Shown here: piece after piece, positions 13,400 through 63,709 of the stretch
How positions within the stretch are numbered: the stretch's first letter is position 1
How the letters are laid out: each line of letters starts with the position of its first letter
Source: a virus
Length of the DNA: 64,000 nucleotides
Virus genome (UHGV): UHGV-1384413
Direction: 5' to 3' (one strand)
The notes under the pieces: generated by a model
What the model saw: the letters and a program-made list of their open reading frames with translations, nothing else
What the model was told of the DNA's origin: nothing
Database searches by the model: none
Made by a program: the position numbers and the translations under genes

Positions 13400-13403
13400 A
13401 ATT

Positions 13404-13490: not shown

Positions 13491-13604
13491 AATTTACATT
13501 TTTAAATGCATAAATTATACAGATAATGACATTGATATTTATCGTCGTTTATACTAGTCACTAACTGCTCGAAAATCAGTGTCATTATCAGTGTAATTTA
13601 TAAA

Positions 13605-13695: not shown

Positions 13696-13793
13696 TATTG
13701 TTAACCTTGTAATTAAGCGAAAGCCGGAAGCAGAACCGGATTATCAAATGTTACAGTCGTCATCGCCGACTAGCAACATGGTTAACATTATTC

Positions 13794-13890
13794 GCTAGGT
13801 AAGCCCTTTGGCAAGGGCGAGGATTTTTAATCCTGAAAATAGACGAGGTAGTCGTTGAATACATAGGTGGTTCGATTCCATCACCTAGCA
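13794..13890 (+). tRNA. atypical tRNA-like gene (best fit anticodon TTT, Lys-like) with ~30-nt variable region
   Basis: Perfect 7-bp acceptor gctaggt/acctagc and canonical T arm ggtgg-ttcgatt-ccatc, but the anticodon arm is 4 bp plus a G.G pair around loop uuUUUaa, followed by a 30-nt stem-loop region; no CCA. Confidence 0.4.
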
Positions 13891-13896
13891 CCTTTT

Positions 13897-13972
13897 GCTG
13901 ATGTAGCACAATTGGCAGTGCAATTGATTTGTAATCAATAGGTTGCAGGTTCAAGTCCTGCCATCAGCACCA
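13897..13972 (+). tRNA. tRNA-Thr (anticodon TGT)
   Basis: Acceptor gctgatg/catcagc, anticodon stem attga/tcaat with loop uuUGUaa, T arm gcagg-ttcaagt-cctgc, CCA encoded. Confidence 0.7.
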
Positions 13973-13973
13973 T

Positions 13974-14048
13974 GGCCCTGTAGCTGGAAGGTTCAAGCAA
14001 GCGACTCATAATCGCCAGACGGTGGTTCAATTCCACCCAGGGCCACCA
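13974..14048 (+). tRNA. tRNA-Met or tRNA-Ile2 (anticodon CAT)
   Basis: Acceptor ggccctg/cagggcc, anticodon loop cuCAUaa, T arm ggtgg-ttcaatt-ccacc, CCA encoded. Confidence 0.65.
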
Positions 14049-14059
14049 AATAATAAATA

Positions 14060-14136
14060 CTCCGCGTAGCTCAGCTTGGTAGAGCGCCTGATTTGGGATC
14101 AGGAGGTCGAGTGTTCGAATCACTCCGTGGAGACCA
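14060..14136 (+). tRNA. tRNA-Pro (anticodon TGG)
   Basis: Acceptor ctccgcg/cgtggag, D arm gctcagcttggtagagc, anticodon stem cctga/tcagg with loop uuUGGga, CCA encoded. Confidence 0.7.
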
Positions 14137-42753: not shown

Positions 42754-43178
42754 TGAGCACACACCCTCGTTTAGTGGACTGGCAAGAAAGATTGTGGAAA
42801 GTGTTTGACGAAGAAGCCACCGTCCCGTTTGAATGGGGATTCCACGATTGCTGCACTTTTGCGGCTAAGTGTGTTGATGCCCAATACGGAACAGATTTTC
42901 TTTCTAACTTTGAAGGAACGTATAAAACAGAGTTGGAAAGCAAGAGATGGTGCATGCTTCGTTTCAAAACCACACATCTGCCTACTATTTTTGATCTCTT
43001 TTTGACTCGACTGGATACTCCTAAACAGGTTCAGCGTGGGGATATTGTTATTTTCGAAGGTCTGAACGGGCTCACCGCTGGTGTGTTCTGGAACAACCAG
43101 ATTTGGGCGAAAGGTGATAAAGGGATCTTTATGTTTGACATGAAAGATTCTATCGTTGTTGATGTCTGGAGGTATTAA
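42741..43178 (+). CDS. tail-tip-associated protein (possible gpK-like Cys-containing domain)
   Basis: 145 aa; WGFHDCCTF Cys-containing motif; stop overlaps the J-like start. Confidence 0.3.
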   Translation: MGGLMSTHPRLVDWQERLWKVFDEEATVPFEWGFHDCCTFAAKCVDAQYGTDFLSNFEGTYKTELESKRWCMLRFKTTHLPTIFDLFLTRLDTPKQVQRGDIVIFEGLNGLTAGVFWNNQIWAKGDKGIFMFDMKDSIVVDVWRY

Positions 43179-46100: not shown

Positions 46101-47323
46101 ATCAGAAAACGGCAGCTTTGACTGAGCAGTTAACCACTGCTAAAGGGCAGATTACAACCAACACCAATAACATTACCGGGTTGGATAATAAGCTGACTCA
46201 GACTAAGAAAGAATTGTCTGCGAATATTTCTGAAACTAATAAGTCTACTGTTGACCTTATTAATGGCACAGCGTCAGCTATTCGTCAAGAACTTGCTGTT
46301 GCTAAGCAGGAGATTATTGATGATGTTGGAGATGTGACCGAACTCAGAGCTGCAGTGGCTACAACATCTAAGGCTGTGACCGACTTAGAGGGCAAAGTAA
46401 ATGCTCAATGGGGCACAAAAATACAGGTAGACTCTGCAGGGAATAAGTATGTGGCAGGTATCCAGTTAGGCATGGAAGGCTCTGGAGGCCAAGTTCAGTC
46501 ATATTTCATGGTTAGCGCAAACAACTTTGCGGTATACAACCCAGGCAATGGAACAGCAACCCTTGCTTTCGCAATCAAGAACAACCAAGCGTTCTTGAAA
46601 GACGCTTTTATAGAGAACGGCACGATCTCTTCTGCCAAGATCGCGCAAGAAATTTCGTCAAACAACTACGATGGCAACGGGTACCACAAATACGGTTGGT
46701 ATATTAACAAGAACGGGCACGCCCAGTTTATGGATGTGTGGGTGAAAGGTAACATCAACGCTAGTGCAGGTAACTTCACAGGGGCAGTTAACGCCACCAG
46801 TGGTACCTTCCGTGGAGATGTTTATGCCAACAATGGTAGCTTTAGAGGGACCATAGATGCAACAGGAGGTACATTCCGTGGACGTGTAGAAGCTTCCGTT
46901 ATCCGTGCTAACCAGTTCGAAGGTGCGATTGTTGCACACAGGACTTACGGAGATTGTGCTCCAGTATATAACTCGCAGCAAAGGGTTTGCCGTTGGAGGT
47001 GGAGATATGTGGACAACGTGCAAGGCCAAGGTAAGAACGTAACATTCTTCTTTAAACTGAATGGTACTCTTGCCAGCTCCCAACTGAATGCATGGATAGC
47101 TGGTCATCAGATCCTTGCTGGCAAGAAGTATTTTAACGACAACAACGGCATGTGTGCGGTAGGGATAACAGGTCTGGGTGAACAAACTATAGACATTGTT
47201 ATCGAGATTTACACACCGTGGTCAACGTCCAGCGTGACAGGTGTCACAATCTCCTGTCCCACTGTGATCGTTAGTCGTTCTAACTCAAGCTTCCAGGGAC
47301 CTTGGAACGAGTCTCACGACTAA
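43178..47323 (+). CDS. central tail fibre, lambda gpJ-like, with inserted coiled-coil repeat array
   Basis: 1381 aa; QGYFAITLIPH..YYWYIRTTNAFGSSQFIECAA and C-terminal KYVAGIQLGMEG..NAFLKDAFIENG parallel lambda J (PGYFQITATPH..YYFYIRSVN; HYVAGIGLSMED) as recalled from memory; about six tandem ~40-aa repeats STNK[AS]TTDLLN.KTEALD.KL. Confidence 0.65.
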   Translation: MPIAMIDNIVASARSSSYDWNASKAALADSLNTVTTRTLDKIFEGNKSYRSQQDRQKLLRSSAAPCSVVYGKTRTSGLLAFLEQDRDRTLHCAIVLANHPLEGVEDILIDGNPISSYGDLVSWELHNDRKTSDPFMGTHCPSWSPDMIGRGISWLRASFKFDPNKFPFGLPNVTLVKVGKKCYDPRISKEVYTNNAALVILDYLRTYLKCPDETINWESFKEAANICDEAVRNADGTSERRYTINGEFDMDEAPASIMAEMLKACGADLSYVAGKYGLLVGAYYGPATMTLSEDCVCGEVKIYPEASFDKRSNTITGRFTSPTKGYSETDFPSVFVPEWIEKDGERKIIDIDYRFVTSPYQAQRVSAIFLRRARAGRIIEVTCNMRGFKFKPGRYVTMNLPSIGIVGQEMRVLEWEFTKKGGVKVKLRQDAKEWNDATGQLPDSGDVDIPISPSGVAQPQNFRYSVLQAGEVTHGVLAWDNVGTYAQNIVQVRKNGEIIWTAQTVEQFVRVEGLTKGSYTATVVATSYKGGVSPEAYCEFNIQAPEAPVSVEVKQGYFAITLIPHSRDLASVSTQYDFWTSGMTRLPDTSDATVTSKATRMGVGSTWTSEGLQNDKIYYWYIRTTNAFGSSQFIECAARCYTSIEDLMPQIDAEFKKTETYKELMSTLDSSIEEVENRVTELNRYMDGRVDEAFDHMEGEFSRVDKLYAQLGDRVGIFIQETHDNFQDVNGTLTTLDQKLVATQNKFADDLSKESGKLTSLIQTTNKATTDLLNQKTEALDEKIFSTRGELEDALAQESSELNSLIVSTNKTTTDLLNRKTEALDNKLTATKGELTNNLQNESAKLSSLIESTNKSTTDLLNKKTEALDEKLVAAQGELTEQIGDVEKGYLAGDKSLEGKLNTQRSELDASILSTNQATVDLLNRTSETLDQKISQTNATVSKNYTTLDGKINTAKSDLNTLISTTNKATTDLLNQKTAALTEQLTTAKGQITTNTNNITGLDNKLTQTKKELSANISETNKSTVDLINGTASAIRQELAVAKQEIIDDVGDVTELRAAVATTSKAVTDLEGKVNAQWGTKIQVDSAGNKYVAGIQLGMEGSGGQVQSYFMVSANNFAVYNPGNGTATLAFAIKNNQAFLKDAFIENGTISSAKIAQEISSNNYDGNGYHKYGWYINKNGHAQFMDVWVKGNINASAGNFTGAVNATSGTFRGDVYANNGSFRGTIDATGGTFRGRVEASVIRANQFEGAIVAHRTYGDCAPVYNSQQRVCRWRWRYVDNVQGQGKNVTFFFKLNGTLASSQLNAWIAGHQILAGKKYFNDNNGMCAVGITGLGEQTIDIVIEIYTPWSTSSVTGVTISCPTVIVSRSNSSFQGPWNESHD

Positions 47324-48930: not shown

Positions 48931-49617
48931 ATGGCAGAGATTAAGTCGGATGTCAACCACATCCACACTCTGCCAGATTTTGTTCAGGGAGGTCTTGATT
49001 ACCTGCCTGGGGATTTTCTGGCTGAGAAGGTTAATTTAGTCACATTCTTAACCGTGTACCTTAAAAGGTTGGAGAATGTTGATAAGATGCTGGTAGGTTT
49101 GGCTGAAGGAAGATTGCTTAACAATGCCAGCGGAAGATACCTTGATGAAGTTGGTAATCAACTTGGTATTCTTAGGAATGGGCTTTCAGATGCTGATTTT
49201 CGTGCTACGCTGATTATTCAGCAGGCAGCATCATCAAGAGGTGGTACTCGCGAAGATGTCATCTCCACCTTACGGCAGTTGTTCGGAAGAGACAATTTCG
49301 ATACGTGGAAAGGTGACAACTTCAGATTTGACATAAATATTAGAAAAACTTGCTTCGACATATTACAGTCCATCGATCAAATCTTAGATATGCTACCATT
49401 ACCTTGTCATTTGCGTCTTACAGAGTCGCAAGGGCAAGCTTTTGGTTTTGAAGGGGACTCTACAGCTCTCGGCTTCGGGTCGGTGTGGGAAGAAAACCAG
49501 TTCGGTGTCGGTGGGTTGGCTACTTTGTTATATGTTCCTGACGTAAGACCTGATTGGGATACCACAACTATTTATTGTGAAAGTATTACAGTAAACGCAA
49601 CTAGACAGGAGGGTTAA
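48931..49617 (+). CDS. baseplate protein, P2 gpI / Mu gp48-like
   Basis: 228 aa immediately after the J-like gene; ..LDYLPGDFLAE.. N-terminal pattern and gene order match tail protein I. Confidence 0.45.
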   Translation: MAEIKSDVNHIHTLPDFVQGGLDYLPGDFLAEKVNLVTFLTVYLKRLENVDKMLVGLAEGRLLNNASGRYLDEVGNQLGILRNGLSDADFRATLIIQQAASSRGGTREDVISTLRQLFGRDNFDTWKGDNFRFDINIRKTCFDILQSIDQILDMLPLPCHLRLTESQGQAFGFEGDSTALGFGSVWEENQFGVGGLATLLYVPDVRPDWDTTTIYCESITVNATRQEG

Positions 49618-51689
49618 TGGCAACAGCTGTTTTTAAACCTTACCGTGATTACTCTACAATGGCTGCACGGTTTCATTACCGCACAGTTCAGGATACTGCA
49701 GTTCCGGGTAGGGATTATGATCATGTTGAGGGCGATGTAACTATCCCGGTTGGGGCAACCAGTATTGAGATCCCTGTAGAAATTGTTGACAAATTGCCAA
49801 ACAGGTTGCCAAGAAGCTTCTTTATGGAGTTTTCATCAAACTCCCAAGGGGTTATGATTGGAACACAAAGAGCGAAATGTACAATAGTTTCAGATGAGAA
49901 TCTTGACAGAATATCTTGGGATACCGTTGAGGAGAGAATGTTTCACCCAAGATACTGGGTTACAACCACACAGCAGACTGAAAGCACCTGTATTGTTGCG
50001 GATAATAACTGCTGTATTAACCGTTTAGTGTCAAGAACATATGGAGGCATGGCTGGGTGCATTTGGGAAACAGTTGACAAGTATGACCATTTCGGCATTG
50101 GATTTGATGATCACTACGAGATGAGAAACACCAAGCTTTGGTTCAGAATGTCAATAACCAATGCCAGCAACTTCTCCACCCCTGAAAAGATGATTATGAC
50201 TGTAGACCTTGTTGATGGTACAATCATCTATGTTCCTTTAGCTCAATATGCTGTCAGCATCTCAGAGGATAAGAATGTTGCAGAAATTCATATTGATTTC
50301 GAGGACTGCGTCGGGATGGACCAGAACAACAACATGATGGGTGTTGATCCTCGGCAGGTGAGAAGGATTTTAATACCGCTTATGCCTAAAGATTGGGTAG
50401 GTAATAGCACAGACCCGAGAACGGAAAATGTAGAATGTGAGTTGCGTCTAGATCTTCTTCAGCCAGACACAGGCTGGAAAATGATGCAACTTAACAATAT
50501 TCAGGTGAAAGAACACGATGTTGGGATCTGCACAGCATATGACGATATGTGGAACGTATCCCCTTTAAGGGTGTTGAGTAATATCAAGCGTCTGGGCTAT
50601 ACAGGAACCATAAACCATTATGTTGGTATGAGCCATTATTATGACTACACATGGTCAGGAACCCAATGGTCTATAAACAAAACAGGAGCTCTAAACGCTG
50701 CAGCTTATAAATGGCATGATGATTTTATGTACAATGCCAAACGGCATGACTTCGACGTTATGCAGTCTGTAAGCTTTGAGCTTTATAGCGATGCCTGTCC
50801 GTTGGAATGGACCCAGAGAGACTGGAACGATAACTATGCTAAAACAGGCTATACGCCTTGCAGTTACCTCCTGTCTCCAACCATTGAAGAGGGCATGAAT
50901 TTCCTTACTGCAGTATTTAAGAATTTTGCATCAGCCGCTATAAGAAACAACCTGCCAGTGATTATGCAGATTGGTGAACCGTGGTGGTGGTTCAATACCG
51001 ATACCCGTAAGCCTTGTATTTATGACTACCCTACAAAGCAGGCGTTTTATGATGAGACTGGTGAATATGCACTAGACATTGGGACTATTGACGATCCTAA
51101 AACTGGCGGTGTTTATGACAAGTATGTAGCATTTTGTCGTGGTAAGCTTGGCGCTCGTATTGCAGCTATTTCAAAGGCAATAAAAGCACACGCTGCATCA
51201 GCTCAGATGACAGCTTTACTGTTTTTCCCCACTATTATGGAAACCGAGCTTACGCAAAAACTGAACCTTGCTGACCAATATAAAAAGGAAGCAGGTGCTC
51301 TTGATTTCTTCTGCACTGAGTGCTACGATTGGGTGATGCAGGGAGGTATTGAAAAGGCAAAAGAGTCTGTAAACATACCTATCGTTAAGTTAGGTTGGAA
51401 ACCGTCTGAAATACAATACCTTGCAGGGTTCGTTCCTAGCAAAGAGCTTGCTCCGGTATATGGCTACGACCCAACCAGGAATTACCAAGAATTTTTATGG
51501 AGATGTATTTGCGGAAACATGGCAACCATAGAGTATAGATACCCTGAGGTAAAACAGTATGTGTGGGCATACCCGCAAGTAATGTCTGACAGCATCACTG
51601 TTACCGCCAGAGATTCTACTGTTCTGCATATGGGGCAGGTTGCTCTGAAAGGGTATGTAGAAGATGTTGTTCCGCCAGACTTCTCATAA
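49617..51689 (+). CDS. tail fibre or spike with N-terminal Calx-beta-like domain
   Basis: 690 aa; GRDYDHVEGDVTIPVGATSIEIPVEIVD fits the Calx-beta pattern; Trp-rich C-terminal domain (IGEPWWWFN) of unknown, possibly enzymatic, function. Confidence 0.4.
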   Translation: MATAVFKPYRDYSTMAARFHYRTVQDTAVPGRDYDHVEGDVTIPVGATSIEIPVEIVDKLPNRLPRSFFMEFSSNSQGVMIGTQRAKCTIVSDENLDRISWDTVEERMFHPRYWVTTTQQTESTCIVADNNCCINRLVSRTYGGMAGCIWETVDKYDHFGIGFDDHYEMRNTKLWFRMSITNASNFSTPEKMIMTVDLVDGTIIYVPLAQYAVSISEDKNVAEIHIDFEDCVGMDQNNNMMGVDPRQVRRILIPLMPKDWVGNSTDPRTENVECELRLDLLQPDTGWKMMQLNNIQVKEHDVGICTAYDDMWNVSPLRVLSNIKRLGYTGTINHYVGMSHYYDYTWSGTQWSINKTGALNAAAYKWHDDFMYNAKRHDFDVMQSVSFELYSDACPLEWTQRDWNDNYAKTGYTPCSYLLSPTIEEGMNFLTAVFKNFASAAIRNNLPVIMQIGEPWWWFNTDTRKPCIYDYPTKQAFYDETGEYALDIGTIDDPKTGGVYDKYVAFCRGKLGARIAAISKAIKAHAASAQMTALLFFPTIMETELTQKLNLADQYKKEAGALDFFCTECYDWVMQGGIEKAKESVNIPIVKLGWKPSEIQYLAGFVPSKELAPVYGYDPTRNYQEFLWRCICGNMATIEYRYPEVKQYVWAYPQVMSDSITVTARDSTVLHMGQVALKGYVEDVVPPDFS

Positions 51690-51701: not shown

Positions 51702-52742
51702 ATGTCAAAACCTAGTTTTCCATTAGAGATTTGGGCAGAGGAGGATCAGGTTCTGCCTAACACCCACAGACAGAACAGGCTACGCCCGATTGATGATTTG
51801 TGGAGAAAAGGTTGGGATCTTGGTCAAAAGCCGTCATGTGAAGAACTTAACTATATTTTCAATATGCTCGGGACTTGGGCAAAATATATTGCTGACGAGC
51901 AGATCCCTGCCCAAGAGGGCCGTTATCTGGTACGTGATAATAACCTGAGCGATCTTTTGAACATTCCTGTTGCCCGTAGAAACCTTGGGATTATTACTAA
52001 GGAAGAGGCAGACGCCAGGTATGTAAAAGTTACAGGCGATACAATGACAGGCCCCTTAGGTTTGCAGCGTATCAACTTTAAAGCTGCCGAGACAGATAAG
52101 GCTTGGATAGAGACAACTATTGGTCCAGATAAGACAACTCTCGACTTTGGGTTAAGTGATAACACTGGGGCGTTTGATGATGGTGGCACATCTACAGTAG
52201 ATGCGTTTCGTTGGAGATTCCAGCCAACTCAGCCAGACATTAATCCAGAGTTCACTTTGATGTACCTGAACGCGATCACGGCTAACCGTGCGCTGTTGAA
52301 AGTGGTAGGTAATGTTGAAGTTGTCGATAACATGCGGTGTAACAACCTTACCATTAGCAGCACAGCAACATTCACCAACTGTAATGTGGCTAGTCAGTTG
52401 ACAGCTGGGTCCGTATATGTTAATGGCGGCGCAAGTTGTGACAGTATGGTTGTAAGAAGCCAGCATTGTGTTGTCGGTAACAGGAATGTGGTGCGCTCTG
52501 TGAATGGAGTGACGGCTAACGGTAACGGAGATGTAACGATCACCATCCCGCAGACAGGGGTACAGGATATCAGAATCGGTGCAAGACTTGTTGATGGTGT
52601 TTCTGAATCTCCAGTTCGCAACGGCTACGTTGTCACAGGTTGGCATTTTGGTGATAAAAAAGAGATGCGTGGTTCAACCTACTGGGCAGGACCTTTACAA
52701 AAACTTGTAAATGGTCAATGGATCACTGTTAATTATGCGTAG
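51702..52742 (+). CDS. tail fibre / receptor-binding protein, paralogue A
   Basis: 346 aa; conserved N-terminus (SFPLEIWAEEDQVLPNT) and C-terminus (LQKLVNGQWITVNYA) shared with the 53755 ORF, divergent middle. Confidence 0.45.
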   Translation: MSKPSFPLEIWAEEDQVLPNTHRQNRLRPIDDLWRKGWDLGQKPSCEELNYIFNMLGTWAKYIADEQIPAQEGRYLVRDNNLSDLLNIPVARRNLGIITKEEADARYVKVTGDTMTGPLGLQRINFKAAETDKAWIETTIGPDKTTLDFGLSDNTGAFDDGGTSTVDAFRWRFQPTQPDINPEFTLMYLNAITANRALLKVVGNVEVVDNMRCNNLTISSTATFTNCNVASQLTAGSVYVNGGASCDSMVVRSQHCVVGNRNVVRSVNGVTANGNGDVTITIPQTGVQDIRIGARLVDGVSESPVRNGYVVTGWHFGDKKEMRGSTYWAGPLQKLVNGQWITVNYA

Positions 52743-53754: not shown

Positions 53755-54801
53755 GTGATGACTAAACCAGTTATCCCTCTTGATATTTGGGCCAATCAGG
53801 ATGTTGTGCTTGAAAATACAGGAGAGTTGAACAAATCTCAACCGAACAAAGAAGAGAGATTGAAAGGTTGGGATATGACACAAAGGATAGCATGTGAAGT
53901 TGTTAACTTTGAACTCCACATGCTTTCTGCGTGGCTAAAGCATTTAACAGAAGATGTTGTCCCTGGATGGGATAATAGATTCTTAAGGGTCACTAATAAT
54001 CTGGCAGATGTTCCAGACAAAGCTGCTGCACGTAAAGTTCTCAATGTATACTCGCCTGAAGAAATGGATGACCTGTATGTTGACAAGACTGGGGACACAA
54101 TGACCCAGACTCAAACTTTAGGTCTTCAAAGAATCGAGTTTGCATCCGCGTCAACAGACAATGCGGCGATATATACCACCATAACTCCAGACAAGACGAT
54201 GATGGATTTCTGGATTATGGACAACATCGGCGGTGCTGACGGCACGGACCTTGATGATCCTTCTCACCAAATAGACGGTTTCCGTTGGAGATTTCAACCC
54301 TCTGGTGGGCAGCCTGTGTTTTCGGCTATGAAGCTCAATGCTATAACTGCCAACCGTGCAAGACTGGCTATCCAAGGAAATCTTGAATGCAATGATGCAA
54401 AAAGCTCCTCTGCAAATGCTAATGCGGTAACGATACCAAGAGCCACTGTTAATGGACAACAATCCTGCGGCAGCGCTCAAATAGGTGGAAGAGTAGATTG
54501 TAACGATAAAACCGCCAGGGGTCAATATGCAACAGTTGGTGGGAGAAACGTTGTCCGCAGGGTAAATGGTAGTAGCGCAGATAGCAGTGGTAACCTTACT
54601 ATCCCTATGCCTAGTAGGGGTGTTGAAGATGTAAGGATAGCAAACCGCTTCAGAACCACCTACAGAGAATCAAGAGTATACCCTGGGCATGTAATGTGCT
54701 CCGGCAATTACGCCTATAAACACCCGTATCAAGGTGACTATTGGACTGGTGCTATTCAAAAATTTGTAAACGGTCAATGGATCACTATATCTTATGCTTA
54801 A
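53755..54801 (+). CDS. tail fibre / receptor-binding protein, paralogue B
   Basis: 348 aa; N-terminus PVIPLDIWANQDVVLENT and C-terminus IQKFVNGQWITISYA parallel the 51702 ORF. Confidence 0.45.
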   Translation: MMTKPVIPLDIWANQDVVLENTGELNKSQPNKEERLKGWDMTQRIACEVVNFELHMLSAWLKHLTEDVVPGWDNRFLRVTNNLADVPDKAAARKVLNVYSPEEMDDLYVDKTGDTMTQTQTLGLQRIEFASASTDNAAIYTTITPDKTMMDFWIMDNIGGADGTDLDDPSHQIDGFRWRFQPSGGQPVFSAMKLNAITANRARLAIQGNLECNDAKSSSANANAVTIPRATVNGQQSCGSAQIGGRVDCNDKTARGQYATVGGRNVVRRVNGSSADSSGNLTIPMPSRGVEDVRIANRFRTTYRESRVYPGHVMCSGNYAYKHPYQGDYWTGAIQKFVNGQWITISYA

Positions 54802-55086: not shown

Positions 55087-56832
55087 ATGGCGCAAGACAT
55101 GACAAGCTTCGAGCAAGCGGTAGATCAAGTAATTGTTGATTCTGAACGTTTGCACTTGATTGTCAACGGTAACGCTGTGGATGAAGTTGTCGTAGAGGAT
55201 GGGACCACTATCCCTACGGTACGAAAAGCCATGCTTGACACCCTTTATTTTAAAACGCCACCAATCCCTTGGGCGTATGGTGCATCCACAACAGTTTTTA
55301 ACCAGTTGTACGAGTTTAAAGGGGATACAGGCACTCAGTGGTGGTACGCCCCAGCAGCATCAAAATCTAACCCGGTTAGGATGCCAGCAGATCCTTCACA
55401 ATCTCCGAACTGGAGATTATACACCGATTCTGCAGTAATGGCAAAATACTACGCAAAACTTAACAGCCCAAGGTTCGAAGGTGACCCGAGAGCACCTACA
55501 CCTCCAATGGATGATAAGTCTGAGTCTATAGCAAACACAGAGTTTGTTGTTGACTATGTGGATAGCATATTTAAAGCCATGGAGGGGATGAAAGTTACTG
55601 TAGGATCTTTGGTGGTAAAAGGTCTTACAGAACTTGCTAACACTATAGTTGGGGGCACCCTTACCTTACACGGACCTGTTAATGGAGCAGATTCTACTGC
55701 ACGCTTCAGGAACCTAATCCTTACGGCAAATACTTCTACACTGACTTTTGCGTGGAGCGATCCTAAGCATGCAGACTGGAGAAGCACAGAGCTGCAACCT
55801 CATGAAGTATCAACTCACAGAGTTATAGCTGACACTATAACTTCTGGGAAACCAGTGGCTAATAACAACGATGTGCATTTTGATGGTCTAGGTAATAACT
55901 TTTTTGACTACGTGTACATTCGCGGTAATGCCATGAAGGCAGCCACCGAACCGACATTGCAGGTTGATGGGACCACCAGGGTTAAGAACCTTGAGGTGAC
56001 AGGGACCGTTACAGGGATAACCTACTCTGTAGATGGCACCATGATCTACCCTAGCTATATTGAAAGCACGGGAGATGCACTGATCAATGGGGATTTAGAG
56101 GTTGGCGGATCTATAGTCATTCGTGGCACAGCATCTGTCCAGAACATATCTTTAAATACTCTGAGGGTGAATGAGCGTGCCACTTTTGAAGGAGAAGGGC
56201 TTACAGCCAACAAAGGTGCAATTACCGAGCTGACAACCACCACTCTAACTGCAACAACTGCAAACTCTGAAAACTGCAACGTTACCAGAAACTTGCAGGT
56301 AAATGGAGATGTTAGTTTAAACGCAGCAGGGACGGGCACCACCTACCTTCACAACCTTGAAATATCAGGTACAGTGACTGGGTGGCTGCCAGACTTCTCT
56401 AATGTCAACTTTGTCTGTAACGGCATTAACTCCAGTGGCAAGATAACCACCTCTCAAGAAATTGAAGCTGGTAAAACTATTACTGCCCCTGCTTTCCATG
56501 CAGGGAAGGTGGAGTTTGACTTAGAGGAGGCTGACGCATCTGGTGGGACATGGACACCTAACGGGCAGGCCAATATGTATGTTGTCCACGCGAAAGGGGA
56601 TTTTACAATAGGGCCATGGCCTGGAACATCGGCTGAAGATAAACCTTACCCGTTCACTGCAATCATCTATGTCATTCAGGATGCTGTAGGCCACAACGTG
56701 ACTTTACACGATAAATATGCCATACTGTCGGCTACTCCTGTTATTAACAACAAAGCCAACAGCGTCACTTTGCTACAATTGACATATTGTGGTGTTGGTG
56801 ATATTGTGGATGTGGTTATTGCACAACGTTAA
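55087..56832 (+). CDS. tail fibre protein
   Basis: 581 aa; Thr/Gly/Asn-rich beta-strand repeats; terminator follows. Confidence 0.45.
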   Translation: MAQDMTSFEQAVDQVIVDSERLHLIVNGNAVDEVVVEDGTTIPTVRKAMLDTLYFKTPPIPWAYGASTTVFNQLYEFKGDTGTQWWYAPAASKSNPVRMPADPSQSPNWRLYTDSAVMAKYYAKLNSPRFEGDPRAPTPPMDDKSESIANTEFVVDYVDSIFKAMEGMKVTVGSLVVKGLTELANTIVGGTLTLHGPVNGADSTARFRNLILTANTSTLTFAWSDPKHADWRSTELQPHEVSTHRVIADTITSGKPVANNNDVHFDGLGNNFFDYVYIRGNAMKAATEPTLQVDGTTRVKNLEVTGTVTGITYSVDGTMIYPSYIESTGDALINGDLEVGGSIVIRGTASVQNISLNTLRVNERATFEGEGLTANKGAITELTTTTLTATTANSENCNVTRNLQVNGDVSLNAAGTGTTYLHNLEISGTVTGWLPDFSNVNFVCNGINSSGKITTSQEIEAGKTITAPAFHAGKVEFDLEEADASGGTWTPNGQANMYVVHAKGDFTIGPWPGTSAEDKPYPFTAIIYVIQDAVGHNVTLHDKYAILSATPVINNKANSVTLLQLTYCGVGDIVDVVIAQR

Positions 56833-56841
56833 TATATCTGA

Positions 56842-56866
56842 CCGCTCCTGACGGGGCGGTTTTCTT
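56842..56866 (+). terminator. hairpin terminator
   Basis: ccgctcc-tgac-ggggcgg then TTTTC. Confidence 0.5.
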
Positions 56867-56880
56867 ATCTGGAGAACACA

Positions 56881-59800
56881 ATGCTTCCAATCCCTTTGCT
56901 AAAACTTGGTCGTCATTTCCTCGATAAGAGGGGTGGAGTTAAGGAACTTGCTGTTCTGTCATACCCAATAGACAACAGTGACGGTACAAGCACTACAGTA
57001 GCTTATGTAAACAGCTTAGCTATACTTTTTGACGATGGTCAGCTTAATATTACTGGCTATAACAAGTTCGGAGAGTGTCGCACTGGGGATCGTAGCCCTA
57101 TAAACTACCCGAGCGAGACAGCTTGGAATGTTGATCATGTGTGGAGAGCAGACCGTGCGTTTGTGATCCGGACTTTTGATAACCAGTTTTTCTACATCGG
57201 CTGCACTGCAGGTCTTATCGGATCCACTGCGGCAGGTGGTAACGATGTTTGCGTAAACGAGTGGACACCTCTTCCTGAACAGATTGTTAAAGGGTTACAC
57301 CTTGACACGCACCCAGAGCGCCTTGTTGAGGTGATGGGTGGTATTAACAACACTGTTTGGGTTATTGCAGAGGCAGAAGGCACTGGCATACTGAACTTGT
57401 ATGGATCTGGTAACAACACCTACGGATCTTTGCATGTAGATAAAAACCAGCATGCAACTCCTGTAAAGATTGGTGAAACATCAGAAAATCCTGAAACAGG
57501 CCCTTGGAAAAACCCAAGCATTAACTGCGAGGTGCATGATAACTCTGTTATTTTCGGTGGGCCTAGAGGTTTTTGGATTGCTGGATACGACTTTCTGAGA
57601 AACAACAGTAGAAACGACCTTGTTTGGCCCCCTGCTCAGATTACTCGCAACGATTTGAAAGGCATTCCTGCAGATGAGGAGTGGAAAGGATTCATGTGTG
57701 GTCCGAACGGGGCGATAATTGCAACGCAGAGGATGCACAAGCCTAATGATCAGCAGCTTGTTAACGTATTCTACGGGCAAGATGTCTGGGGAGATGATAC
57801 ATGGCGTTCCTTAAATATTACCTACACCCATGAAGTAATAATGGCTCGTGGGTACGGAACAAGTGGCATTTTCTTCAATAATGGCACTAAGCAGTATCGC
57901 GGATTCTCTCGCAACTTATGTAATGATATTGGCGCACAATCTGCAAACAATAACCCTAGGGCCAATTTTATCCACTATCAAGCTCTTGCCACAGCCAAAT
58001 ACGTTGAGCAACGCCTCCCAGTTAGCTGGACAGAGAGTGTTTATTTCCAAGGCATTCACAGAGAAGGTTTTTTAGGGACCTTTACTGTTGTTAATGGTAA
58101 ACTTTGGTGGTCAGGTATCCCAAGGGGAAGTTTTGCAGGTTCTAATAACCTGTTTGGCGGCAGACTTAATAGTCAAGGGTTCACAGAGGTTCCTGAGAAT
58201 TGGTATAAAAATGTCCCAGTAGACAGTTGGGGTGTTGATGATATTTTTGACGTTAACGGTGTTAGCAGTGTTAGCAATATTTACATTGGTGACACGGTCA
58301 AGATGAAATTGAAGCCTCAGCCAGAGGGGGCTACGTTCATTATTGACAAGATTGAACTGGTAAATGCTGCGGGTACGGTTGTTACAGATGCAAATTACCA
58401 ATTCTCCACCAACTGGAACCACGGCGGGGCCAACGAAGTTGTTGTTACACAGTATAACAGGAATGTTAACAGACGTGGCCTGTACTCTGTAAAAATAACC
58501 TATCACGACAAGCATGGCACAGGTAGAACGCACACGACAAGGACTTTGAACTGGAACACCATAGTTCCTGCGTATCCTTCTGACGGTAAGTGGCATACTG
58601 TCGGTAGAAACAAACAGTTCCATGTTAATGACACTGTATACTTCGGGTTGAATGGGACTCAGCCTGCGGTAGAAGGAGATACATCGTACATGGTCCGACT
58701 CCACAGAATGGATGCTGGATCAGTAACTTATGATGTTACCCAAGAGATTTATAATCAGCGACGGAATACCTATAATAACTTGGTGCAGACACAGGCCTTA
58801 TGGGAGTTCAACCCAAACGGTAGAGGTGGTAAAATGCTGCAGGTCAACGAACAAAACGGAACGTCGTTGACTGTCCACGAACACCCAGACCCTTGGCCTG
58901 ATCCTGGAAAACCTCACCCAGGTGCTCGTACACTGAAAATTGTCAGCCATGATGCAGGATATTTCGGAATACGCTGGGAAGCCACAGTAAGATATGCCGA
59001 CGGGACAACAAACAACATAGGGATTACACTCGGCGGTACTAGTGAGGATAACTCGCTGAAAATTGCCTACACCCCTAGAGGTATCTCTGTTGATAATATG
59101 GATGTTGTTCGCAATGGTTACGGCGATGTGAATGTCAAAGTTACTCTTGGCGAACATCTTGGTGGGGAAAGGATCATTATGTATGCCTTTGATCATGACC
59201 CACGAACCGATGGAACTTATGCAAATCAGGCATGGAGTTACCTGATAAATGCACCTGAGCCGAATACTAAAGAGTTCTACTACGGTATGAAGCGAGATGC
59301 GTGCAAGAAAACAGGAACACATGACTGGATTGCTATCTGCGTTAAAGATGAGCGCACAGCTTGGGATGAGCCTGTTAACAGATGGTTCATAGGTATTCCT
59401 ACCCGGAGTGATAAGTATGTCGCAGAGTATATTGTATGCATGGGCGGTACCAACCTAAACATGTGTTGGAACGAAGATGCAAACAAATACTCTGATTATG
59501 ACTATATGAGAGATTACTCTTGTAATCAGTGGTTTAACCAATCAACAGGGTATCCTCCACGTCAGGCGAGAGTAAACCCTGCAATCTTTACAGATACGCA
59601 GGTTTTCTTGACAAAACAGGCCAATGAGGTTCAGACCTTCAAGAACAAATATGACCCTAACAAATGGTTTTATAACTGTTATGGCGCATTTTTCTGGGGT
59701 CCTGGCGAACTGCCTAATGGAGGATCTTGCTTCGAGGCTGCAACTTACGCCAGTGATTACATCATGGGCCAGGTTAAGAAGTATAAGATAATTCCAGGTC

Positions 59801-62508
59801 CTGAAACTCTTGGTAATGCCGTTGACCCTTATATCATCATGACTGCGCTGAGATCAAACATGGACGGGACATCCATGTCTATGCAGATTCCAGTAACAAA
59901 TGGGTACAAACGTGTTGTGATGATTATTAAGTGTGACTTAATAGGTAAACAAGTCCTTGCAGAAAACGGGACCTCCACACATCCTTTTGAGATTGCTCTG
60001 CACTATCAGTTTGCTGACTCACCCTTTTCAGGGGATAAGAGAATATCTGATACAGATGCGCAGCGTTGTAAGAAGGTATTGTTGGGTGCAGGTTGGTGGT
60101 GGTATGAATTTGATTTAACAGACAAATTCACCGACACGTCAAAAGTTGTAACAGGGCTTCGTCTAGACCTTGGCGAGAACATGCACAAAGCTGTTTGTGA
60201 TGGCACCTATGGTGACCCTACAGTATATCTGAAGTATGTCTCTTTTGAGCATCCGGAAGATGTTGTTTACGGTCCAAAACTGAGATTGTTTGGCAGTTGG
60301 ATTGCAAAAGACAGGGTAGGCATGGGTAAAAAGGTAAGAGGGTTCTTAGTTGATGCAGGAACAGAAGACATGCTGGTTAATGCAGTATGGCCTGAATTAC
60401 CTGGGACTCAGTGGAATAACTCAGCCAAGTCTATAAACTGGTTCAACATTCACAGAGCTATGTGGACCACTAACTGCTACTTGTGGAGAGAGCTTAACGA
60501 TCAGGCTTTTGGCTTCGGTAACGGCAGAAGGATGGCGATCATTTGCTGGACAACGCTGCAAAGATGCTATGACCATGATTACGAGATTGGTGGTAGGGCA
60601 TGGAAAAATATCAGGGATAGAATCATAACCAATTTTGCAGACGACAACGGCGGTGGAGCACATAACTTTGGCACAAGCCGACTTATCCATTTGAACGGAT
60701 CCTCAGCCTACAAGAAAGAAGGTTACTCTGGGTCTATGATTGAGTGGGGTTTGGTGAAAGATGCTCGCGTATTGATGGGTCAACAACTTGCTGCTGCAAT
60801 AGGTCCTAACGCAGTGCAGTCTGTTAAGCCAGCGTGGTTCGATATACCAATATGGTCATCTGGAACACCGGGAACTGCGGCAATCAACCCTACCACTGGG
60901 GATTTGGAAATCTCTTGGGAGGACTTAAAGCAGGTTGGCGGCTGGGATAAGACAGGGTACCAGGTGCAATGGTGGAGATCTGACGGATCGTTAGCAGCTG
61001 ATGAGTTTGTTAAGGACAATTTCTACACCATGTCCTCTGCAAAAGCCCAGCAATTGTTTGGTCAGGCCACTCCGTCAACGATCACTATGTCTATGTGTTG
61101 TAAAGACAACAGAACTGGAGCTTTGGGACCAAGGGTTGCTAAAGTTTTCTCAGGTATTAAATGGAATCTCCCTGTTCAAAGTGTTTCATGGAAGCAAATA
61201 GGTGATAACAAGCTACTGGTTACTCCTGCCTGCCAGTTCAACGCAACCCTCAACGTTGATCCGGCTGTTGCAGCAAACTCAGCTAAAGCTTCTGACTTCT
61301 CTGTGTCTAACACTGCTATGGCAGATGTGAGAAAGATTGACACACTGAATGCCAGAATTACCTGTAAAAACACTTATGGCACATTCCAGATCATCAACAA
61401 CTTCACAGATGCTGATTCTAAGGTAGTGAGGACAGCAAGCCAGACTATGCAGTTGGGAACTCTGGCATACTCTGCCTTGATCACTGAACAATCTCCTACC
61501 CTTCAGGGTGGGGGTGTTGGTAAGTTGATCACAACACCTGTGTGGAAGCCAAATGAGTGGGTTGTGTTTGATTTGACTGTAGACTTCTCCAGTGACAATA
61601 ACTGGACATGGGTAAGGAATTGCTTGTCACAGTTGATGGGTGGTCCAAGCTCTGTTAGTGATAGCCACGACTCTACTGACCCGAGCGTGTTCCAGGTGGG
61701 TAAAACTCACCCAGAAACTGGGGCACAGTTGCCTGACAGGAAGTATGCTTTGGTTTGCATCTCCAACGGCAAGGCAGATGTAACCTTCTCAGGGACACAC
61801 ACATATAACGGCACTTACAACTTCTCTAAAAAGTACAGCCTCAAGGCAGGTAACATTGTAGATGAAGTTGGTGCGTTGTATAATCCAGGTAACGGCATAG
61901 GGATTGTGGGCGGTAAACTGCAGATGCAGGAACCTTCTATAACCCCAGCCAACGTGCCTGGTATCAGAAAAACTTGGGAAAGTAGCAATACCAATATTGC
62001 AACAGTGGATGCTACCACAGGACTGGTAACATTTAAGGCTACCGAGAATGTCACCATAAGGTTTGTAGTTACAGATGATGCAGGCCGCAAAACGTCTTCA
62101 ACATCGTTTACTGTCAAACAGATGGCACCTCAGTGGTTTATTTGGGAAGGAAATCCTCTTGACGGGGCTTACCCTAGACCTGCAGGAACGTCTAATATGA
62201 GGGTCTTTACCGGTCCAGTCATGGACAATCCAACCACAACCACCAACCCTGCATTTTTTGGTGCTTACATACCTGAAATTATTGGCCTACCAAGGAACCA
62301 AATACAATTGCTTTTCGGGGCAGGCGTTGATGGTCTAGCCACTTTCGGGTACAGTGACAACATTGATGCAGCCAGAAGCTCCGGTTGGATTGGATTTAAG
62401 TTCCAGTGGAACCCTGGTGGTAGAACATTAGGTCTCGCAAGTATAGGTGTTATGCTGCCTGGCAACCAGCAATACCATCTCGAAGCTTATACAAACTTCC
62501 CTAGTTAA
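56881..62508 (+). CDS. giant tail fibre / adhesin-like protein with Ig-like (Big_2-type) domain
   Basis: 1875 aa; N-terminal Gly/Asn-rich repeats (LYGSGNNTYGSLHV) suggestive of a beta-propeller; Big_2-like segment TWESSNTNIATVDATTGLVTFKATENVTIRFVVTDDAGRKTSSTSFTVK. Confidence 0.5.
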   Translation: MLPIPLLKLGRHFLDKRGGVKELAVLSYPIDNSDGTSTTVAYVNSLAILFDDGQLNITGYNKFGECRTGDRSPINYPSETAWNVDHVWRADRAFVIRTFDNQFFYIGCTAGLIGSTAAGGNDVCVNEWTPLPEQIVKGLHLDTHPERLVEVMGGINNTVWVIAEAEGTGILNLYGSGNNTYGSLHVDKNQHATPVKIGETSENPETGPWKNPSINCEVHDNSVIFGGPRGFWIAGYDFLRNNSRNDLVWPPAQITRNDLKGIPADEEWKGFMCGPNGAIIATQRMHKPNDQQLVNVFYGQDVWGDDTWRSLNITYTHEVIMARGYGTSGIFFNNGTKQYRGFSRNLCNDIGAQSANNNPRANFIHYQALATAKYVEQRLPVSWTESVYFQGIHREGFLGTFTVVNGKLWWSGIPRGSFAGSNNLFGGRLNSQGFTEVPENWYKNVPVDSWGVDDIFDVNGVSSVSNIYIGDTVKMKLKPQPEGATFIIDKIELVNAAGTVVTDANYQFSTNWNHGGANEVVVTQYNRNVNRRGLYSVKITYHDKHGTGRTHTTRTLNWNTIVPAYPSDGKWHTVGRNKQFHVNDTVYFGLNGTQPAVEGDTSYMVRLHRMDAGSVTYDVTQEIYNQRRNTYNNLVQTQALWEFNPNGRGGKMLQVNEQNGTSLTVHEHPDPWPDPGKPHPGARTLKIVSHDAGYFGIRWEATVRYADGTTNNIGITLGGTSEDNSLKIAYTPRGISVDNMDVVRNGYGDVNVKVTLGEHLGGERIIMYAFDHDPRTDGTYANQAWSYLINAPEPNTKEFYYGMKRDACKKTGTHDWIAICVKDERTAWDEPVNRWFIGIPTRSDKYVAEYIVCMGGTNLNMCWNEDANKYSDYDYMRDYSCNQWFNQSTGYPPRQARVNPAIFTDTQVFLTKQANEVQTFKNKYDPNKWFYNCYGAFFWGPGELPNGGSCFEAATYASDYIMGQVKKYKIIPGPETLGNAVDPYIIMTALRSNMDGTSMSMQIPVTNGYKRVVMIIKCDLIGKQVLAENGTSTHPFEIALHYQFADSPFSGDKRISDTDAQRCKKVLLGAGWWWYEFDLTDKFTDTSKVVTGLRLDLGENMHKAVCDGTYGDPTVYLKYVSFEHPEDVVYGPKLRLFGSWIAKDRVGMGKKVRGFLVDAGTEDMLVNAVWPELPGTQWNNSAKSINWFNIHRAMWTTNCYLWRELNDQAFGFGNGRRMAIICWTTLQRCYDHDYEIGGRAWKNIRDRIITNFADDNGGGAHNFGTSRLIHLNGSSAYKKEGYSGSMIEWGLVKDARVLMGQQLAAAIGPNAVQSVKPAWFDIPIWSSGTPGTAAINPTTGDLEISWEDLKQVGGWDKTGYQVQWWRSDGSLAADEFVKDNFYTMSSAKAQQLFGQATPSTITMSMCCKDNRTGALGPRVAKVFSGIKWNLPVQSVSWKQIGDNKLLVTPACQFNATLNVDPAVAANSAKASDFSVSNTAMADVRKIDTLNARITCKNTYGTFQIINNFTDADSKVVRTASQTMQLGTLAYSALITEQSPTLQGGGVGKLITTPVWKPNEWVVFDLTVDFSSDNNWTWVRNCLSQLMGGPSSVSDSHDSTDPSVFQVGKTHPETGAQLPDRKYALVCISNGKADVTFSGTHTYNGTYNFSKKYSLKAGNIVDEVGALYNPGNGIGIVGGKLQMQEPSITPANVPGIRKTWESSNTNIATVDATTGLVTFKATENVTIRFVVTDDAGRKTSSTSFTVKQMAPQWFIWEGNPLDGAYPRPAGTSNMRVFTGPVMDNPTTTTNPAFFGAYIPEIIGLPRNQIQLLFGAGVDGLATFGYSDNIDAARSSGWIGFKFQWNPGGRTLGLASIGVMLPGNQQYHLEAYTNFPS

Positions 62509-62520
62509 CAGGAGGCAAAT

Positions 62521-62550
62521 AAAAAGGGGCCGTTTGGCCCCTTTCTTTTA
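62521..62550. terminator. bidirectional hairpin terminator between convergent genes
   Basis: aaaaaggggcc-gttt-ggccccttt flanked by A- and T-tracts on both sides. Confidence 0.7.
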
Positions 62551-62553
62551 TAA

Positions 62554-62754
62554 TTAGTAATATTCCCAACACGACCCATCTTCAGACGGCTGGACACGCT
62601 TACCTTTGTAGTCAACATAGGTGTAACCACAACCTTCGCAGATAACAGGTGCTGCATAGCCTTCCTTCCACTGATCCTCAGTGATCAGACCTTCAAAATC
62701 TTTGCAGTCAAAGCCAAATAACTCTTCAGAGCAATCTTTACAAAAATCAGCCAT
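62554..62754 (-). CDS. small zinc-ribbon protein
   Basis: 66 aa; CKDC..CEGC Cys pairs. Confidence 0.35.
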   Translation of the reverse strand: MADFCKDCSEELFGFDCKDFEGLITEDQWKEGYAAPVICEGCGYTYVDYKGKRVQPSEDGSCWEYY

Positions 62755-62757
62755 TTC

Positions 62758-63240
62758 TCAGTCCTCGCATTTAACAAATTTTTCTACAGATCCACCAAGC
62801 ACAGCTTGTTGTTTGATGGCACTTTCTTCATCATAGTGGATAGACTTATGTTCCGTACCTCCAAACTTGCCTGTGTGGAAGGTGTGCACCCAAATCTCTT
62901 TAGGAAGGGATTTATTCTCTTCTTCCACCAACTCCCACATTCCCCATAAGTGATCTGTGATATCTCTGATGAAATATCCCTCGCCGAGGTTTGTATTCAC
63001 ACTGTAGGCCGATTCGTGATCTCCGCAAATATAACGGAAGGCAGTGTACTCTTTCCCTGGCGTGAAGTGGGTATCCATTAGTATGGCTGTTAAAGAATTA
63101 GGGTCTCGAAATCCCAAAAACTTTAGTTTAACAATTTCGACGTTCACACTTGCAAGATTATCCATGACAATCTCCTCTGCTTGGTTGATGAGATAATCAT
63201 ATATAAATCTGGTGTTGATGTCAAGCTTAATTTTAAGCAA
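62758..63240 (-). CDS. hypothetical protein
   Basis: 160-aa ORF; first gene of the next minus-strand block. Confidence 0.35.
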   Translation of the reverse strand: MLKIKLDINTRFIYDYLINQAEEIVMDNLASVNVEIVKLKFLGFRDPNSLTAILMDTHFTPGKEYTAFRYICGDHESAYSVNTNLGEGYFIRDITDHLWGMWELVEEENKSLPKEIWVHTFHTGKFGGTEHKSIHYDEESAIKQQAVLGGSVEKFVKCED

Positions 63241-63328: not shown

Positions 63329-63709
63329 TTATGACGATTTGACGTAGCGCTCTGACAAAGCTGGGAAGCCAAAAGCAGCACCTACACTACCGTACGCTAT
63401 CCACCATTGAAGTTCATCGTGACACCATTTTCCGATCAGAAAGGTGCTGGGGTAGCGAGTTAATATTTTGGCATAAGCTTTAGGGTCTGCATCCTCTGGG
63501 ATAATGATGCTTGGAACATCTTTGTTATGACCACAGCAGCAGTTTAGAGTTTTCAATCCTGCCGCCCATAGGCTCATGATAGGCTTAGCCATGCACTTAT
63601 CAAGGCACACACGTTTTTTGCCGTCACGGAGCTTTTTAGGCACATCAACGATAACATTTTGATGCTTGGCACCTTTCACTTTCCAATTATAGGATTTACA
63701 CTTGCACAT
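63329..63709 (-). CDS. Cys-rich hypothetical protein
   Basis: 126 aa with CKCK, CLDKC and CCCGHN clusters. Confidence 0.35.
   Translation of the reverse strand: MCKCKSYNWKVKGAKHQNVIVDVPKKLRDGKKRVCLDKCMAKPIMSLWAAGLKTLNCCCGHNKDVPSIIIPEDADPKAYAKILTRYPSTFLIGKWCHDELQWWIAYGSVGAAFGFPALSERYVKSS

Follow-up and report, generated by a model that had tools for sequence, protein, structure and literature searches.

What does the largest gene of an rV5-like phage contribute to its virion, and how would its product be held there? The question arises from a 64,000-nucleotide (nt) stretch of virus genome UHGV-1384413 (hereafter the window), in which a plus-strand open reading frame (ORF) of 1875 amino acids (aa) closes a block of tail-fibre genes. 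Comparison across genera indicates that this gene forms the second half of a two-gene module, in which the upstream fibre gene keeps a conserved C-terminal head and the downstream protein keeps a short N-terminal peptide. The reading developed here has an even chance of being right: the 1875-aa protein would be an accessory adhesin of low copy number, attached through its N-terminal peptide and a propeller to the head of the neighbouring 581-aa fibre, and showing domains like carbohydrate-binding modules (CBM), immunoglobulin (Ig)-like domains and a tip to host glycans. The parts on which the argument turns are these:

56881-62508 (+): ORF of 1875 aa with an ATG start, orthologue of rV5 gp27, phrog_15684
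55087-56832 (+): upstream partner of 581 aa, orthologue of rV5 gp28, a phiTE-LTF-like tail fibre (phrog_4549) assigned through a PDB match
56881-56907 (+): N-terminal peptide MLPIPLLKL, proposed docking motif M-[LFY]-P-I-P-x-[LF], a start shared with the counterparts

A fibre head and an N-terminal peptide conserved together

The 581-aa protein matches the 'Putative tail fiber protein' of phage phiTE (PDB 9cuy_g/9mjn) with E 1.2e-76, and its relatives carry Pfam Phage_phiTE_241_N/C. According to the phiTE structure paper, this fibre is a trimer bound to the baseplate wedge and sheath initiator. The last ~95-130 aa make up the fibre head, in which 22 residues are invariant over eight phages of five genera. 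Some pairs of fibres share only this C-terminal part, the 581-aa protein matching phAPEC8 at 48% over 130 aa and phi92 gp151 at 51% over 95 aa.

The same layout recurs from genus to genus: a fibre gene with the head, and then the last gene of the block, whose product starts with M-x-P-I-P. The downstream proteins have the following lengths:

Seunavirus (GAP31, SSE121): 567-604 aa
Avunavirus (Av-05): 647 aa
Phapecoctavirus (phAPEC8): 891 aa
Justusliebigvirus (phi92, alia): 939 aa
Two Vequintavirus-like metagenome phages: 1711 and 1976 aa

The fuller start M-[LFY]-P-I-P-x-[LF] is common to the counterparts in Vequintavirus, Seunavirus, Avunavirus, Phapecoctavirus and Justusliebigvirus. Head and peptide are both retained while the remaining modules of the downstream proteins shuffle. 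A propeller is present in Vequintavirus, Seunavirus and Phapecoctavirus and absent from Justusliebigvirus and Avunavirus, so that in phi92 gp152 and alia the peptide is joined straight to a Big_2 domain. A module related to phage N4 gp65 occurs in Justusliebigvirus, Avunavirus and Vequintavirus, and a C-terminal domain of 300 aa is common to the phAPEC8 and alia proteins. Certrevirus DU_PP_I presents a variant, a phrog_4549 fibre with a similar head followed by a 413-aa phrog_15692 protein that starts with MIPF. On these comparisons the two-gene module, a head-bearing fibre followed by an MxPIP protein, is conserved in at least six genera, an arrangement that is new in this analysis. An exclusive pairing of the head with the propeller was considered and rejected, because in phi92-like and Av-05 phages the head occurs and the propeller is missing; the head pairs with the MxPIP start.

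Two gene calls met in this comparison deserve correction. In metagenome phage L006, the call for homologue P0015 begins four codons early (8001-8015, MENTMFPIP...), the conserved start being the Met before FPIP. In phi92 (FR775895, L008), gp152 (7331-7939, 202 aa) and gp153 (8106-8993, 295 aa, annotated with 'no RBS, weak prodigal statistics', RBS being the ribosome-binding site) correspond to one 939-aa gene of alia and to one family, phrog_32204; it seems that the phi92 annotation has divided one gene in two, owing to a frameshift or an error in sequencing.

An RCC1-like domain behind the peptide

The peptide leads into the best conserved part of the protein, which is 70-80% identical even in relatives that are 45-58% identical overall.

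56938-58215 (+): RCC1-like beta-propeller domain, aa ~20-445, from Pfam, hhalign and profile searches

A first-pass annotation, made from the letters alone, had described Gly/Asn-rich, propeller-like repeats at the N-terminus. Glycine and asparagine are indeed abundant (G 9.8% and N 7.5% of the protein; within residues 101-300, 10-14 G and 9-11 N in every 100 aa), but the gene holds no DNA tandem repeats of note. Neither hhalign of quarters of the N-terminal domain nor a hidden Markov model of a single blade finds significant internal repeats, blades being recognisable only within aa ~40-200. The propeller-like character is borne out by homology instead.

Pfam gives the window protein two matches below threshold, WD40_RLD at aa 44-197 (E 1.8e-5, 24.7 bits vs a cut-off of 150) and RCC1_2 (E 0.011, 16 bits vs a cut-off of 22). 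In hhalign, aa 1-455 align with the first 421 aa of a protein known as 'tail protein' in phAPEC8, GAP31 and SSE121 (Prob 99.7, E 4e-26), and these homologues exceed the RCC1 gathering score of 21.7 with 24.3, 32.7 and 36.1 bits. A joint-family profile matches solved seven-bladed RCC1-type propellers, among them UVR8 (5e-12) and HERC1 (3e-10) and also HERC2, RPGR and RCC2, and the domain length of ~420 aa fits seven blades. The predicted local distance difference test (pLDDT) of AlphaFold2 (AF2) is 20-35 over this region. The matches support an RCC1-like assignment for the N-terminal third of the protein, which is an addition of this analysis.

Beta-sandwich beads and the question of a trimeric fibre

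Downstream of the propeller, the chain can be divided into the following segments:

58216-59400 (+): variable beta-sandwich region, aa 446-840, with at least two Ig-like sandwiches modelled by AF2 at ~450-565 and ~735-840
59401-59769 (+): conserved Cys/Trp-rich segment, aa 841-963, carrying YIVCMGGTNLNMCW in invariant alignment columns
59770-60252 (+): CBM-like beta-jelly-roll, an exchangeable cassette, aa 964-1124
60253-60870 (+): conserved core, aa 1125-1330, related by hhalign to the esterase-like module of N4 gp65 and phi92 gp153
60871-61152 (+): sandwich of fibronectin type III (FN3)/Ig-like type, aa 1331-1424, resembling the C-terminal repeats of N4 gp65
61153-61644 (+): divergent beta-sandwich region, aa 1425-1588, 12-24% identical to distant relatives (P0003-P0015)
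61645-62130 (+): Big_2/intimin-like Ig domains, aa 1589-1750, the best modelled part
62131-62505 (+): dimorphic C-terminal tip, aa 1751-1875, a terminal sandwich found dimorphic by tblastn

AF2 was run on two halves (aa 1-1000 and 880-1875) with a family alignment of 16 sequences (15 homologue clusters), giving mean pLDDT values of 41 and 55. In the moderately conserved region aa 446-840, which is replaced in mosaic fashion in P0015, model 1 reaches a pLDDT of 55-75 only at ~450-565 and ~735-840, while aa 1501-1569 reach 50-78. Confidence is very low over aa 1126-1330, and the helical prediction there is untrustworthy. All parts modelled with confidence are globular beta-sandwiches, of the CBM or the Ig type known from monomeric adhesins and S-layer proteins. 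In Foldseek, the C-terminal half takes the form of a chain of Ig-like beads resembling cadherins, S-layer proteins and NUP210, and the matches in PDB and BFVD are only generic Ig-like strings and fragments of the protein itself.

These models bear on whether the protein is a canonical homotrimeric lateral tail fibre attached directly to the baseplate, as its BASEL annotation implies. That idea draws on the existing annotation and on the location in the fibre block, on the three lateral fibre sets of phi92-type virions, whose assignment to genes is incomplete, and on the thin 70-nm fibres reported in the rV5 paper. However, Pfam searches with seven fragments (E<=10) detect no coiled coil, collagen, beta-helix, Tail_spike_N or Peptidase_S74 in the 1875-aa protein, and no assembly-chaperone gene, such as one of Tfa type, adjoins its gene in the window or in the annotated relative Bas59, whereas other fibres of the window show such modules. 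Its conserved N-terminal third is RCC1-like, and known RCC1-type propellers are single-chain folds; its modelled parts are Ig and CBM beads; and the phi92-like phages, which have the three fibre sets, carry only a propeller-less relative of 939 aa. A canonical fibre is unlikely on this evidence. The first-pass label of a fibre or adhesin thus holds for the setting, the tail-fibre block of an rV5-like myophage, and for the mosaic of host-recognition type described below, but not for the architecture, in which canonical fibre modules are missing and the modelled parts are globular.

An esterase-like core related to N4 gp65

By sequence, the centre of the protein is an orphan: residues 200-1399 match only their own family among 1.84 billion representatives. 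Relatives of the full protein fall into only 15 clusters among 5.8 billion proteins, and the PDB yields nothing significant, whether the protein or the family profile is the query. The core at aa 1125-1330 is marked by the motifs GFLVDAGTEDML, NWFNxHRAMW, CWTxLxRCY and EGYSGSMIEWG. In hhalign, the family over aa 1129-1421 matches a profile of alia gp033, Av-05_00106, Achromobacter phage Axp-2 gp27 and N4 gp65 with Prob 95.5 and E 1.3e-8; these four sequences were picked by hand via tblastn, and a search for homologues of phi92 gp153 gave 2 trivial matches. The core also matches phrog_32204 (E 8e-4) and, by blastp, phi92 gp153 (42 bits), which itself belongs to the gp65-like family (E 1e-24 against N4 gp65, PDB 9lc0). 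These matches point to a relationship between aa 1129-1421 and the N4 gp65/phi92 gp153 module, a link added by this analysis. The Ig domain is not the only recognisable module of the protein.

Only this downstream gp65 module is shared, since Pfam finds neither NCTSP_N nor TIM-barrel_NCTSP in the 1875-aa protein. N4 gp65, a non-contractile tail sheath and receptor-binding protein, differs further in being a sheath on a podovirus tail, with NCTSP_N and a TIM barrel. The gp65 modules are divided between two proteins of the window: NCTSP_N and the TIM barrel lie on the 690-aa NGR-binding fibre at 49617-51689 (+), and the downstream module at 60253-61152 (+).

Just before the CBM-like cassette, the motif in aa 841-963 resembles alia VFAGQDNVNAHF and Av-05 VFAGGDNAAAHF by inspection only, and Pfam has no match for the segment. 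It is possibly the first half of an SGNH/SASA-like domain, which raises the question of whether the protein is chiefly enzymatic, a tail-borne carbohydrate esterase or deacetylase acting on a surface glycan, with the sandwiches as spacers or CBMs. The kinship of aa 1129-1421 with the N4 gp65/phi92 gp153 module is consistent with this, and some annotators name the phi92-like relatives 'tail carbohydrate esterase'. Motifs like SGNH blocks I and III can be aligned as well (YIVCMGGTNLN and GTEDM in the window vs VFAGQDNVN and WGQGENDA in alia), and the phi92-like relatives have weak SASA matches (E 0.0035-0.034), though under the gathering score. The window protein, however, has no Pfam match even with the CBM-like insertion deleted and no conserved DxxH block, and the nucleophile position in its block-I-like GGTN is Thr857, with Asp in alia and Av-05. 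A chiefly enzymatic role is improbable, and it would not exclude adhesion.

C-terminal Ig-like domains and a tip with two alleles

Big_2 (PF02368) is found at aa 1686-1733 with E 3.7e-5 and 24.0 bits against a cut-off of 22.8, rising to 28.7 bits on the C-terminal fragment, which confirms the Big_2-like segment proposed near the C-terminus. The likeness to intimin holds at the level of single domains only: Pfam shows the Ig-like (Big_2) fold and, of the intimin/invasin architecture, neither a beta-barrel/LysM anchor nor a C-type-lectin-like domain.

The last 125 aa occur as two alleles. By tblastn, 38 of 114 phage records share at least 95% identity with the window's tip and the other 76 share 62-63%, with none between. 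The tip is uncoupled from the rest of the protein: P0001 is 93% identical overall and 50-76% at the tip, P0002 is 77% identical overall and 96-100% at the tip, and several phages match at 95-96% across the first 5256 nt and diverge after that. Other parts are mosaic too, with cassettes at aa 450-750 and 950-1150 swapped in some lineages and aa 1650-1875 missing from two. Such a mosaic, allele-swapping pattern is typical of host-recognition proteins. Both tip alleles are found in phages isolated on K-12, and the tip is therefore not the decider of K-12 infection.

The Ig-like domains also raise the possibility that the protein decorates capsid, neck or tail tube in the manner of Hoc, with weak adherence to debris or mucus and no part in host recognition at the tail tip. 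The Big_2 region has a match in phrog_215 ('structural protein with Ig domain'), which is filed under head and packaging; it resembles the C-terminal Ig domain of lambda gpV; and the phi92 paper likens gp140 and gp151 to the head spike of phage Pa223. Against these stand a gene order strictly kept next to a baseplate-attached fibre gene in six genera or more, the fact that the described capsid decoration proteins of rV5 (gp61) and phiTE are others, and a low expected copy number that is ill-suited to decorating a lattice. A Hoc-like role is accordingly quite unlikely.

Evidence for a place on the virion

Virions of phage W70 contain W70_106 (phrog_15692, 44 kDa), detected with 115 spectra, and its gene adjoins that of the phrog_4549 fibre W70_107, with 996 spectra. 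It belongs to the same family as the positional counterpart in Certrevirus, a family whose homology to the window propeller is weak (Prob 45%), and it is a probable propeller-only counterpart of the 1875-aa protein. In rV5 itself, multidimensional protein identification (MudPIT) of virions credits gp27 with 9 spectra from 3 peptides, covering 3.1% of the protein; these peptides are non- or semi-tryptic and score poorly.

Could the protein be absent from virions altogether, as an intracellular or lysis-released product or a decaying remnant at the end of the operon? The gene comes after a terminator-like hairpin, the rV5 mass spectrometry is marginal, and the large search cited above finds relatives of the central 1200 aa within the family only. 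Yet the 5.6-kb ORF is intact in more than 100 genomes, the propeller holds its 70-80% identity even between distant members, the Shine-Dalgarno (SD) sequence is good, and W70_106 is a virion protein. A non-virion protein is very unlikely.

The position of the proposed accessory adhesin can be compared with electron cryomicroscopy (cryo-EM) of related phages. In the study of Bas49 and Bas54, both Vequintavirus, one class of fibre starts with an N-terminal helical bundle, continues in two beta-helices and ends in a C-terminal head; the phi92 paper leaves one fibre without a gene assignment. In Bas49, orthologues of the 1875-aa protein and of the 581-aa fibre are present at 95% and 97% identity, respectively. 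A wider proposal, tentative and somewhat short of an even chance, is that the gp27 family supplies the distal component still missing from the Vequintavirus fibre network. Such a protein would be non-fibrous, probably a single-chain string of domains ~50 nm long hooked on the fibre head, which would explain the unassigned cryo-EM density there. Head and peptide would then act as socket and plug in a general docking system that exchanges propeller, Big_2, gp65-like esterase-like and CBM modules among at least six genera of large enterobacterial myophages, with MIPF as the Certrevirus variant.

Several observations weigh against docking and virion location. The MudPIT level of rV5 gp27 equals that of the non-structural rIIA and may be noise, and the rV5 authors do not list gp27 among the virion proteins. 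The Bas49/Bas54 class with the unassigned density (TC8) is only tentatively identified with the phiTE-LTF-like 581-aa protein, which its description fits. The head is not exclusive to the gene pair: it is found twice per genome (2 places per record) in phi92-like and phAPEC8-like phages, which therefore have a second fibre with the same head. The 413-aa Certrevirus protein aligns with the propeller family collinearly but weakly (hhalign Prob 45%, Pfam RCC1 E ~0.5). Finally, both AF2 models are poor because the homologue clusters are few (15), and the model of the N-terminal half was unusable and was left out of the Foldseek search.

A hairpin between the two genes

The spacer between fibre and adhesin genes contains two signals, of which the hairpin is absent from the first-pass annotation:

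56840-56869 (+): intrinsic-terminator-like hairpin CCGCTCC-TGAC-GGGGCGG (stem 56840-56861) with the T-run TTTTCTT, a proposed attenuator corresponding to rV5 t028
56871-56874 (+): Shine-Dalgarno sequence GGAG, read from the sequence, 6 nt before the ATG

A GC-rich hairpin with a T-run occupies the 35-50-nt spacer in nine lineages (the window, Bas59, the metagenome phages L006 and L007, phAPEC8, GAP31, SSE121, phi92 and DU_PP_I), and the stem sequences differ among them. In the window, the gap between T-run and SD is ~10 nt, which therefore leaves no room for a promoter. Partial termination at the hairpin would probably give a lower dose of the accessory protein than of the fibre. A promoter-like site at 56779-56807 was treated as chance, because such sites are as numerous as expected from shuffled sequence.

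Proposed mode of action

In the accessory-adhesin model, the 581-aa gene makes a fibre that is homologous to the phiTE long tail fibre (LTF) and ends in the conserved head of ~95 aa, and the hairpin between the genes would lower expression of the 1875-aa protein relative to this fibre. The M-x-P-I-P peptide, perhaps together with the RCC1-like propeller, would dock on the head. From there a chain would project outward, made of Ig-like sandwiches, the gp65-like/esterase-like core with its CBM-like insert, FN3-like and Big_2 domains and the two-allele tip, and it would bind host surface glycans or proteins reversibly.

This binding would add a further specificity to a phage whose essential K-12 receptors, the NGR glycan and LPS-core glucose (LPS, lipopolysaccharide), are read by other fibres. 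In the literature, the primary K-12 receptor (first given as enterobacterial common antigen, ECA, and later as the NGR glycan) is assigned to a fibre with a deacetylase domain, and the terminal receptor, LPS-core glucose, is thought to be read by the short tail fibres. The deacetylase-domain fibre of the window is the 690-aa protein with NCTSP/TIM-barrel domains described above.

Relation to known systems

The closest relatives are full-length orthologues, rV5 gp27 and Bas59 bas59_0040. Bas59 shares 92.8% DNA identity with the window gene, rV5-like phages share 91-97% protein identity, and position and flanking terminators match as well. The difference from rV5 is one of allelic detail only, the window having the minority tip allele and rV5 the other. 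Further away, the Seunavirus/Phapecoctavirus 'tail protein' (GAP31_232, SSE121 gp048, PVP-SE1 gp040 and the 891-aa protein of phAPEC8; phrog_11922) shares the locus after the fibre gene, the MxPIP start, the RCC1-like domain and Big_2. It is 567-891 aa long and lacks the central region of ~1150 aa (Ig sandwiches, CBM-like domain and gp65-like core) and the Vequintavirus tip. The Justusliebigvirus/Avunavirus tail protein (phi92 gp152 and gp153, alia gp033 of 939 aa, Av-05_00106; phrog_32204) has the same position, the MxPIP start, Big_2 and the N4-gp65-like module; it is far shorter, with no RCC1 propeller and with the peptide fused to Big_2.

RCC1-type domains are also known from the virion proteomes of large myophages (W70_237-239, W70_106/phrog_15692 and eleven proteins in phAPEC6), and phrog_15692 occupies an equivalent place beside a phrog_4549 fibre. 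Unlike the 1875-aa protein, these are stand-alone proteins of ~40 kDa, for which the literature guesses a role in 'DNA condensation'.

Separately encoded proteins that dock on the distal end of a fibre and add or set specificity are familiar from T4 gp38 on the gp37 tip and from the branched tailspikes of CBA120, G7C and phiKp24. The likeness of the 1875-aa protein to these is one of working mode only, its own docking being inferred. What is new here is the RCC1-like assignment, the gp65/gp153 link, the rule pairing head with MxPIP, the inter-gene hairpin and the dimorphic tip; nothing in the scheme is mechanistically unprecedented.

The docking question has practical weight. Phages of the rV5-like and phi92-like types are popular candidates for therapy and biocontrol because of their broad host range, and two recent cryo-EM studies could not match genes to fibres in them. 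If true, the docking rule, in which each fibre n receives on its head the MxPIP start of protein n+1, would place the largest unplaced structural gene on the virion and would offer a means of exchanging accessory adhesins from one phage to another. Should the protein prove absent from the virion, what is left is a large and well-conserved orphan ORF, one that over 100 genomes already have annotated.

Source phage and existing annotation

The window comes from a Vequintavirus, an rV5-like coliphage. The gene is already in the databases, and its reading as a tail-associated adhesin with an Ig domain is already public annotation. Megablast finds it in 122 phage records, of which 108 cover at least 80%; the records listed have 88-96% DNA identity, and nearly all are Vequintavirus. 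At the protein level, 110 phage records cover at least 80% of the 1875 aa. The match to phrog_15684 is full-length and collinear (E 0, residues 1-1874 against profile positions 1-1877). The window protein has a calculated mass of 208.2 kDa and an isoelectric point of 6.4; rV5 gp27, with 1878 aa and 208,334 Da, is recorded as a 'conserved hypothetical protein' with Big_2. BASEL genomes such as Bas59 call the product a 'lateral tail fiber protein with intimin domain', and other records call it 'Ig-like domain-containing protein'. The searchable literature assigns no function to the rV5 gp27 family.

About 15-20 GenBank records of the MG0656xx series (for example MG065644, MG065682 and MG065639), named 'Campylobacter phage' with host C. 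jejuni, hold rV5-like or phi92-like coliphage versions of the gene and its neighbours at 90-100% identity, which suggests that they are mislabelled or derive from mixed lysates.

The surrounding block and other features of the window

With 1875 codons the gene is the largest of the window, ahead of ORFs of 1381 and 1268 aa, and it closes the plus-strand block, as the first-pass annotation had stated; the next ORFs (62554-62754, 62758-63240 and 63329-63709) are all on the minus strand. The sign of the GC skew flips in the last 2 kb of the window. Bas59 has an identical gene arrangement at the end of the block. The bidirectional terminator that had been placed here is also present:

62523-62553 (no strand): bidirectional intrinsic terminator, common to the convergent minus-strand block, matching rV5 t026/t027

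Its hairpin, GGGGCC-GTTT-GGCCCC (62523-62544), is preceded by an A-run and followed by a T-run.

The first-pass count of at least seven other fibre or spike genes agrees with Bas59, where eight others in the block are annotated as fibre proteins; several of them carry fibre or spike Pfam domains. Including the 1875-aa gene, the block holds about nine fibre-type genes, which fits the published 'Swiss-army-knife' view of these phages. Among them, the gpJ-like central fibre at 43178-47323 (+), with Phage_Tail_Tip and Ig_J domains, has 1381 aa, compared with 1279 aa in rV5 and Bas59; the BASEL paper names it as one of three allelically variable fibre genes. Two short-tail-fibre paralogues at 51702-52742 and 53755-54801 (+) are 43% identical to each other, with a Caudo_TAP-type chaperone gene between them, as described for rV5 gp30/gp33.

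Further upstream, seven tRNA genes cluster at 13325-14136 (+). In one call, at 13794-13892 (99 nt), the 'anticodon' has four bases, atcc, and no amino acid is assigned; this tRNA may be intron-containing, frameshift-suppressor-like or degenerate.

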